From NCBI GenBank assembly GCA_964016885.1, contig OZ024751.1:6882001-6946000 (forward strand): a DNA stretch of 64,000 nucleotides, given 5' to 3'. The DNA comes from Eledone cirrhosa (Eukaryota). The notes below the pieces were generated by a model. It worked only from the letters and a program-made list of their open reading frames with translations. It was not told the DNA's origin and ran no database searches. Shown one piece after another: positions 25,449-26,875 of this stretch (position 1 is its first letter; each line of letters begins with the position of its first letter). The position numbers and the translations under genes are program-made.

Positions 25449-26875
25449 GGGGAATAAGGAGAAAGCAAGAACGGCGGGTGGTCGTCATCAGTTGTCTACT
25501 GGGGGTCTCGGATATTTCTACGCTTTAAAGACAAGATATCTACCGCCCAGGGCGTCAATAACTGGATACGTTATTCGAAAAACGGAGGAGGGAACGAAGG
25601 AAAACAAAGGGGAAGAAAAGAGAAAACAATGAAAAGACAGAAAAAATAACAAACCGTGCAATGTGCGAACAACTTAAGGTAAGAAAATCCAAGACCACAC
25701 GAGAAGAGAACTTAAGTTCAAAACTGAGTGGTCGAGAGTAAAAGGTCACACGTCTGATCCCAGCAGTTGTAAGTAAGAAAAGAACTACTAGAGGGTCAGG
25801 CGAGGGGGTCAAAGTGAGACGGCGAAAGGGAGAGGAGGAAAGTGGGGTAAAAGTAGATAGTAACGAAATAGTTAGGTAGGTATAGAGAGAAGACTGGTGG
25901 AGAGGAGTGAAAGAGAGAGGGAGAAAGGGAGAGGAAGAAAGAGGGGTGAGAGTAGAAAGTGGTGAAATAGGAAGGTAGAAGGGGAGAGAAGAATGGTCAC
26001 AGCAAAAACATAAAATATATGGAGAATAGAAATGGCTGTATAGTTGGTGTTTAAGGTATCTTAAAATGGAGTAGGAATAAGAAGAACGCAAGAAAGTGGG
26101 AAGGAGTTTTCCTCATCAGTTGTCTACTGGGGGTCTCGGATATTTCTATGCTTTAAAGACAATATATCTACCGCCCAGGGCGTCAATAACTGGATAATTT
26201 ATTAGGAAAACTTATGAGGAACCAAACGTCCTTGGTTTCTTCTTATTCCCGTTGCATTTTAAGTTACTTTAAATAGCAACTACACAGCCGTTTCTATTCT
26301 CCATATATTTCATCATTTTTTCGCTGTGACCATTCTTCGCTCCCCTTCTACCTACCTATTTCGCTACTTTCTACTCTCACTCCTCTTTCTTCCCTTCTCT
26401 TTCTCCCTATCTACTCTTACCCCACTTTCATCCTCCCCCTTTCTCCCTCTCCCTTTCACCCTCTCGCCTGACCCTCTAGTAGTTCTTTTCTCACTTACAA
26501 CTGCTGGGATAAGAGGTGTGTTTTTTTTCTCTCGACCACTCAGTCTTGAACATAACATTTCTTCTCGTGTGGTCTTGGATTTTCTTACCTTAAGTTGCTC
26601 ACACATTGCTTGGTTTGTTGGGCTTTTTCTCGCTGATTTGTCATTGTTTTCTCTTTTCTTCCATTTTGTTCTCCTTCCCTGCCTCCTCTGTTCTCCCAAA
26701 TAACTTATCCAGTTATTGACGTCCTGGGCGGTAGATGTCTTGTCTTTAAAGCGTAGAAATATCAGAGACCCCCAGTAGACAACTGATGAGGAACGCGTTC
26801 TTGCTTTCTTCTTATTCCCACTCCATTTTTGGATACCTTAAATACCAACTACACATCCATTGCTATTCTCCATAT
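25449..26875. mobile_element. Family E non-coding ~570-630-bp terminally redundant repeat, tandem plus inverted copies, with scrambled hammerhead motifs
   Basis: Motif repeats at 25485-25550 (-), 26113-26178 (-) and 26724-26789 (+); orientation switches near 26205. Confidence 0.8.

Follow-up and report, generated by a model that had tools for sequence, protein, structure and literature searches.

Non-LTR retrozymes of metazoans were described as non-coding units arranged head to tail, each with one hammerhead core, and it was proposed that they depend on Penelope-like elements (PLEs) (PMC7229834; bioRxiv 10.64898/2026.07.22.740005). The published units measure 51-972 bp, with a mean of 650 bp in ray-finned fish (bioRxiv 10.64898/2026.07.22.740005). 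In a stretch of 64,000 nucleotides from Eledone cirrhosa, the whole of which is called the window in the following, two families, E and F, show the same architecture and fall into the same size range. They differ from metazoan retrozymes in that their ribozyme is not of type I and adjacent monomers are diverged, and unlike the long arrays formed by retrozymes they are short inverted PLE-type insertions, known here from DNA alone. As their ribozyme falls outside type I and circles are only hypothetical, E and F are not filed as non-LTR retrozymes. The initial annotation of this DNA had regarded them as a class of non-coding retrozymes mobilised by PLE machinery; the non-coding repeated unit and the PLE-type insertion hold, while the size and the PLE link were already in print.

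The type-SGC and type-CSG hammerheads of Eckert et al. (2023, PMC10085705) resemble E and F in the order cleavage site, GAAA, CUGAUGA, in a short I'-II' linker and in an additional helix that links stems I and II at their far ends. In contrast to the described SGC form, the 5' strand of stem II (II-5') of E and F precedes the motif rather than following CUGAUGA, which breaks the assumption of an indivisible block C made there, and the additional helix runs on from stem III without a break. The published examples stem mainly from metatranscriptomes and the supplement contains no match for Danio, Octopus, Metazoa or Eukaryota, while E and F reside in animal retrotransposons.

Among PLEs, the Naiads (Craig et al., 2021, PMC8557442) share with E and F the preference for (TA)n, which was reported as their preferred target, the tandem and inverted copies with a tail and, as judged by eye, the fold of the ribozyme, located some 70-90 nt before the 3' end; Naiad_Obim and Naiad_Ovul are among the elements that show it. 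Unlike Naiads, E and F have no ORF, and no stem sequences are common to them and the Octopus Naiad ends. Naiads were said to be without canonical hammerheads, with eight 'half cores' flagged, and only 'HHR_core' and 'HHR_half_core' were flagged in them; cephalopod Naiads were described as long inactivated (PMC8557442). Non-autonomous Chlamys PLEs such as MRC1, which belong to the clade with N-terminal endonuclease, are likewise non-coding passengers that make pLTRs and insert head to tail; they differ from E and F in being green algal, in having no described ribozyme and in being matched to their helpers by 3' similarity (PMC8557442). The minimal type I hammerheads (Cervera and de la Pena, 2014, PMC4209133) are similar to E and F in their position at PLE ends, in the weak or irregular base of stem II and in the probable need of a second copy. 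They dimerise via a palindromic stem III, while stem III of E and F is long and the strands presumed to be swapped are those of stems I and II.

In the literature searched, including PMC13725137, PMC7650587 and PMC10294476 and covering few subscription papers, no report was found of the E/F ribozyme layout, of permuted hammerheads in animal retrotransposons or of a 3' ribozyme behind HERO-like LINE ORFs. The element class is known; what is new is the layout of the ribozyme and what it means for Naiads.

Anatomy of families E and F and their surroundings

The features of E, F and a reference PLE, at their positions in the window, are as follows.

25334..25448, no strand: (CA)n at the left end of E, which forms the tail of the SINE-like element located at about 25029-25333
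25449..26226, minus: inverted 5' partner arm of E, 778 nt, 1.24 units, period 628
25485..25556, minus: motif copy L2 of E, predicted cut after 25535 on the minus strand
25805..25997, minus: internal duplication in the body of the left arm, 99-bp period, 78% identical
26113..26184, minus: motif copy L1 of E, predicted cut after 26163 on the minus strand, A at position 17
26206..26875, plus: main arm of E, 1.17 units, period 572
26718..26789, plus: motif copy R1 of E, split type-SGC hammerhead-like, predicted cut after 26739
26820..26875, plus: one-sided 56-nt extension of the right arm (PLE-type tail), without counterpart in the left arm
26872..26904, no strand: (TA)n at the right end of E
58917..58998, minus: inverted 5' partner of F, truncated just before GAAA
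58998..59593, plus: main unit of F, period 552, 24-nt terminal redundancy
59479..59548, plus: split type-SGC motif of F, predicted cut after 59500
6091..13072, minus: reference PLE with C-terminal endonuclease, nearly full-length, RT frame 7518-9848 with RVT_1 match

Self-comparison revealed that E is made up of two opposed arms, running from 26226 to 25449 on the minus strand and from 26206 to 26875 on the plus strand, that are 78% identical, gaps included, over 653 columns. The left arm carries two complete ribozyme motifs 628 nt apart and stops 35 nt after CUGAUGA; the right arm carries one complete motif and starts with a degenerate CUGAUGA block at 26211, from which its period is counted. 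Both head-to-tail periods that had been proposed for E, 628 and 572 bp, were borne out, and their difference is largely due to the internal duplication of the left arm. Either arm follows a path from ribozyme through body to ribozyme without an ORF. The bodies are 13% diverged, compared to 3-7% between the ribozyme copies (Fisher p=0.03), and the tails of adjacent monomers are only 84% identical.

For F, a period of about 550 bp had been suggested and 552 bp was found; the redundancy on which it is based covers only 24 nt, of which 21 are identical (best of 1000 shuffles: 18), so that F is a weak case of a tandem unit. Two complete copies within one arm are seen in the left arm of E and not in F. 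The main motif of F shows two apparent decay changes, in II' and in III, and the intact II', III and H strands come from its inverted partner. Apart from the ribozyme, the bodies of E and F share low-complexity matches only. The other properties assigned to the two families from the start, namely the lack of a credible ORF, the pyrimidine-rich body and the inverted 5' partners, were confirmed: the longest ATG-started frame of E has 80 aa, that of F has 121 aa and passes through (TC)n, none of three long E frames and one F-overlapping frame tested had a Pfam match, and C+T amounts to 75% of either body on the ribozyme strand.

The 56-nt tail of E exceeds the published PLE tail range of 30-40 bp. 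In other genomic copies of E, (TA)n follows at the position homologous to the tail end at 26875 (26308/26311), as observed in contigs and in RAD reads. The extension of F comprises ~34 nt and may be the start of a SINE instead of a PLE tail. The view that both families end in microsatellites applies to the right end of E and to F, which has (TA)n on both sides, and to the left end of E with the qualification that the (CA)n there was read from the sequence as the tail of the neighbouring tRNA-type SINE-like element. Another purine/pyrimidine-skewed stretch at 27130-27720 lies beside (TA)n and has a minus-strand CUGAUGA at 27301; it shows neither the ribozyme layout nor similarity to E.

Published PLE insertions are marked by an inverted partner, a one-sided tail and a microsatellite (PMC8557442). 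Within the window, which is rich in microsatellites, the PLE at 6091-13072 has direct and inverted pLTRs, a 36-nt tail and (TA)n, the same pattern as in E, which bears out the likeness drawn earlier between E/F and the PLEs of the window. Its pLTRs of 1.3 kb are filled with microsatellites and non-coding, the inverted 5' partner is present, one stop and one frameshift lie ahead of the RT, and no S-G-C motif was found in it. A putative type I hammerhead near 6235-6280 of this PLE does not have the CUGAnGA consensus. At the termini of the window PLEs the hammerheads are of the ordinary type I and have a palindromic stem III, e.g., at 4738, 21062, 23760, 54659, 59971, and 62855, and these PLEs are therefore no obvious donors of E and F.

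Several further elements were observed in the window. Short palindromic insertions in (TA)n, at 2551-2886, 13203-13484, 20581-20726, 23500-24055, 46352-46591, 59700-60210, and 62758-63075, appear to be PLE ends, truncated and inverted, from no fewer than five families; several of these insertions bear a minimal type I hammerhead in both arms. PLE ORFs of a second type, decayed and with a CNCR...CPL..CL motif ahead of the GIY-YIG domain, are found at 47150-49760 (plus strand), with fragments at 22136-22819, 51896-52513, and 56836-57351, and are presumably Hydra-like. An AT-rich tandem duplication at 52848-53942 (period about 533, 82% identical) directly follows a PLE fragment, and no hammerhead layout was found in it. 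Fragmented ORFs at 40512-45650 (plus) and 60658-61750 (minus) seem to us to resemble Helitron Rep/helicase, and the frames tested had no Pfam match at E<=0.01. Two other LINE fragments are a zf-RVT-bearing C-terminus at 4835-5833 (plus) and pieces at 29457-30620 (minus) that we take to be RTE-like endonuclease/RT.

As a genomic repeat, E was compared with four sequencing runs (DNA-type or unlabelled) at a likeness threshold of 80%, and was matched by 2355 and 2412 contigs and by 553 and 690 RAD reads. In the contig runs all 30 bins of E were covered, with a summed depth of 22-28k at the ribozyme and tail bins and of 0.3-5k in the body; two locus-identical contigs had a depth of 9.6-11 against these 22-28k, a rough comparison that gives no copy number. 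This suggests hundreds to thousands of E copies, and other bodies with the same ribozyme could cause the fall in depth outside ribozyme and tail. Since most of the matching contigs are less than 95% alike, the family is diverged; it looks old and may be inactive now. Loose ends of the matching contigs and reads continue beyond CUGAUGA in C-rich, variable sequence; in other family copies of the 25485 and 26796 regions a near-palindrome and a C run that differs in length come after CUGAUGA. Among 24 of 726 loose ends no shared switch from the E body into unrelated sequence was seen, the contigs being short; apart from the (TA)n and C-rich ends noted above, they were variants of subfamilies, runs of (GA)n or poly(A), flanks of single loci and read ends.

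Block order and helices of the ribozyme motif

In both E and F the conserved blocks follow in the order cleavage site, GAAA, CUGAUGA, which corresponds to type SGC. A pattern of this scrambled ribozyme had three matches in E and none in 100 shuffles, a relaxed scan of the window returned only four sites (three in E, one in F; none in each of ten shuffles), and nhmmer with a motif profile gave only five sites, all already known. The CUGAnGA, GAAA and UH cores are present in all three E copies and in the main motif of F, with CUGAUGA, GAAA and UH intact in all three of E; the window as a whole holds 43 CUGAnGA sites. No type I fold was found at the E and F sites. Rfam at gathering thresholds had no match in the whole window, and at E<=10 it gave 14 matches over E, mostly to (TA)n and none to a ribozyme. 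Two other readings were rejected as they had no matching stem I/stem II partner, a minimal type I hammerhead in GAAAUAUC and a core CUGAUGA-G-GAAA devoid of stem II.

Read 5' to 3', the E/F ribozyme has the order II-5', H-5', III', UH with the predicted cut behind it, I', II', GAAA, III, H-3', about 1 nt, I and CUGAUGA; in R1 this places II-5' at 26718-22, GAAA at 26756 and CUGAUGA at 26783-89. On the evidence of its sequence it has the SGC/CSG fold described by Eckert et al. with a new opening point, between A9 and G10.1, and helix H would be the counterpart of the stem I-II 'interaction' helix described by these authors. Once the ends are closed, the circular order reads I-CUGAUGA-II-H-III'-UH-I'-II'-GAAA-III-H. 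This circle would be opened after III in the CSG Naiads and between H and III' in the SGC form of Eckert et al.; an opening between A9 and G10.1 would be common to E, F, the Octopus Naiads and the HERO-like ends described below.

Eleven motifs from E, F and the HERO-like loci were aligned, with the locus L095 left out because of a 1-nt insertion. In these motifs, which with L095 represent only about four independent families, were in the metagenome cases picked by their III sequence and were placed in register by eye, the four-helix model paired 83.5% of the cells, 14 of 21 pairs were changed on both sides, and none of 500 shuffles reached its score, with slid registers pairing 33-44%. With the same alignment, stem III was paired to 98% and stem I to 89%, the latter with two-sided change in all six pairs. 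The strand upstream of the motif paired as stem II in 72.7% of the cells, with four of five pairs changed on both sides and none of 500 shuffles reaching this value. The alternative of building stem II from the bases after CUGAUGA is disfavoured, as it paired only 43.6%, was reached by 69 of 500 shuffles and left 10 of 11 motifs unpaired at the first position; in E these hypervariable bases find no partner in the strand that precedes GAAA. At offsets +2/+3 the downstream strand paired to 56% and could be a competing strand. A looser best-offset metric (at least four of five pairs) did not separate the two options, with 9 of 12 motifs upstream and 8 of 12 downstream, compared to 12 of 46 and 11 of 46 in the chance families introduced below.

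The base pair 10.1-11.1 is G·A and not G-C in all three E copies, and G-C in six of the 11 aligned motifs, F included; mismatches at this position also occur in the type I PLE hammerheads of the window. In every family helix H prolongs stem III and leaves about 1 nt to the start of stem I. III+H was predicted as a nested fold in six of seven motifs folded, including E, F, L110 and L030 but not L024, and the folding z-scores (-0.35 to +0.87) were not significant.

The same fold at Naiad ends and behind HERO-like LINE remnants

In the supplement of Craig et al. (2021), consensus sequences were read by eye at 54 of 84 CUGAnGA places, CUGAAGA excepted; for some of these sequences the assignment to Naiads comes from where they stand in the file. 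Nine of these 54 places show the split E/F layout and six the CSG layout, two of the latter adjoining nematode Naiad headers. The nine include the 3' ends of Naiad_Obim and Naiad_Ovul, in which the GAAA block and CUGAUGA are spaced by 19 nt as in E and F, and stem II reads GACACC/GGUGUC and stem I CUGCCC/GGGCAG (by eye). In the Naiads, the partner of stem II is a 5-6-nt strand 5' of the entire motif that begins with the canonical G10.1, the upstream pairs being GACACC/GGUGUC, GGCUCC/GGAGCC, and GGCCCC/GGGGCC. In the CSG form, II follows A9 and leads directly into H, which matches the prediction from circular closure. The stems of E and F are unlike those of the Octopus Naiad ends in sequence, with the fold common to both (by eye), while the III strand of E and F matches the HERO-like motifs.

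These HERO-like motifs emerged from a core-only pattern search that yielded at least 119 metagenome loci and 12 viral loci, together 131 matches. Eight of them carry the fold (L010, L017, L024, L030, L087, L095, L102, and L110), with five to six of six stem I pairs in six loci and four in two close relatives. The remaining 123, among them all 12 viral matches, are chance matches, mostly bacterial genes, that form 46 families with at most four of six stem I pairs and served as the null. A peak of 56-nt matches in the metagenome scan was discarded as a signal, its source being repeated bacterial coding sequences.

All eight fold-bearing loci lie in sense and just downstream of coding remnants of a restriction-endonuclease-type LINE, which we take to be HERO-like; the remnants had weak zf-RVT matches and the matched proteins end in a common C-terminal motif. 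Seven of the eight motifs come after the ORF end. The position of the motif in one locus is:

L010, 4716-4801, plus: motif after an internal zinc-finger remnant and the ORF-end junction

The III strand is as in E and F, a match imposed by the search pattern, and the spacing is 19 nt (20 nt in L095). None of the four HERO-like loci with long flanks has a tandem or inverted copy of the motif, and those HERO-like copies that match each other remain alike to ~170 nt past CUGAUGA, compared to an end at 35-90 nt in E, F and Naiads. The eight loci were seen to form two unrelated animal-derived families. In the window, tblastx of the HERO-like upstream sequence found no HERO-like sequence, and a short-motif scan of the six frames found no Naiad- or HERO-specific coding motif.

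Probable mobilisation, dimer model and significance

On balance we lean toward the reading that E and F are non-autonomous units of ~550-630 nt with a permuted hammerhead-like RNA, mobilised by a PLE that is most likely of Naiad type. A PLE protein with reverse transcriptase and GIY-YIG domain would have copied closed non-coding E/F units in trans into microsatellites. A Naiad-type helper is suggested by the common fold, the similar distance to the 3' end, the (TA)n target and the inverted partner. The HERO-like LINEs have the fold and lack the insertion pattern; in the PLEs of the window the pattern is present and the fold is absent.

In the proposed RNA, III and H form a hairpin, and I', II' and GAA lie in its loop. 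Stem III of hammerheads points away from stems I and II (PMC4209133), and III+H of about 13-22 bp would be too short, in a single molecule, to bridge the distance between the bottom of the core and the far ends of stems I and II. As H is continuous with III and lies 0-2 nt from these far ends, a fold-back inside one molecule would not be possible, and both free ends of one copy would instead pair into the loop of a second copy. A similar geometric puzzle was noted by Eckert et al. for some SGC ribozymes (PMC10085705). Such a strand swap would tolerate the observed lengths of III+H, an argument from helix arithmetic only, and the E/F ribozyme probably works as a dimer. The strand-swapped dimer would correspond to what is known of other PLEs, whose minimal type I hammerheads cut only as dimers (PMC4209133); axolotl retrozymes are likewise cut as tandem or paired RNAs (PMC7229834). 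Dependence on a dimer would confine cutting to tandem or paired RNAs, so that such transcripts could be cut to unit length and may circularise.

The initial annotation had proposed that E and F are retrozymes using the scrambled ribozyme. The motif is present, three times in E and once in F, but the diverged adjacent monomers argue against copying from a single circle. The genomic copies of E and F retain sequence on either side of the predicted cut site, which together with the 84% identity of the tails and the more strongly diverged bodies makes uncleaved multimers or two RNAs a likelier template than one circle. The insertions would then have been reverse-transcribed from uncleaved heterogeneous multimers or from two RNAs of the family, starting 35-90 nt past the ribozyme, which fits the report that cleavage is dispensable for insertion of an anole PLE in vitro (PMC11167929). 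That monomer-length circles of E exist today appears doubtful.

It is unlikely that E and F are fragments of a coding PLE, taken from a tandemly repeated 3'UTR/pLTR, or that they arose once by deletion and were amplified afterwards; in either case they would form no independent class of retrozymes. Long non-coding pLTRs do occur here, as in the PLE at 6091-13072 with about 1.3 kb, the Octopus Naiad 3'UTRs, which exceed 1 kb and have an internal duplication, terminate in the E/F ribozyme fold (by eye), and Li et al. trace retrozymes to pLTRs (bioRxiv 10.64898/2026.07.22.740005); the short redundancy of F points in the same direction. What argues for a unit of its own is that the two diverged arms of E have one and the same closed path from ribozyme to ribozyme, and that no common exit from the body was seen among the 24 of 726 loose ends, in short contigs. 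Quite unlikely in our view is a motif in E that does not cut, or never gives monomers or circles, and is conserved in PLE-moved units as a structure for RT recognition or dimerisation, in which case the name retrozyme would be wrong. This would agree with the G·A at 10.1-11.1 in the three E copies, with monomer tails that are hypervariable after CUGAUGA and unlike rolling-circle copies, with the insertion of the anole PLE without need for cleavage (PMC11167929) and with the failure of eight of nine predicted frog retrozymes to cleave (bioRxiv 10.64898/2026.07.22.740005), but all three E copies keep CUGAUGA, GAAA and UH intact, the type I hammerheads of the window are mismatched at 10.1-11.1 as well, and related SGC and CSG RNAs cleave in vitro (PMC10085705).

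Very unlikely is, finally, that E and F derive from, or were mobilised by, the HERO-like LINEs that bear the motif behind their ORF. The eight of 131 pattern matches that lie in sense just downstream of HERO-like remnants, with the same III strand and spacing, would fit such an origin, and among molluscs R2-Hero was found mainly in cephalopods (PMC10294476). The III match came, however, from the search pattern itself, and the lack of tandem or inverted motif copies in the four long-flanked loci, the continuation to ~170 nt past CUGAUGA and the lack of HERO-like sequence in the window speak against this origin.

Beyond the mobilisation of E and F by a PLE, we advance with some reserve, at slightly less than even confidence, a more general proposal: a seventh natural hammerhead layout, opened in the core and active as a strand-swapped dimer, may be the standard 3' ribozyme of many Naiads, of HERO-like LINEs and of E and F, with E and F being retrozymes of 550-630-nt RNA and further Naiads bearing the CSG permutation of this fold. 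If true, it would add a layout outside the six-permutation scheme, and non-circularly permuted hammerheads would extend from rare environmental RNAs to high-copy animal retrotransposons. With an RNA of ~72 nt, a predicted cut site and a predicted difference between monomer and dimer behaviour, the role of the ribozymes at PLE ends becomes directly testable. The lack of hammerheads in Naiads was used to argue that such ribozymes may merely parasitise PLEs; if the proposal is true, the reading of Naiads as hammerhead-less would be overturned, and permuted hammerheads would be abundant in animal genomes and common to two unrelated classes of retrotransposons.
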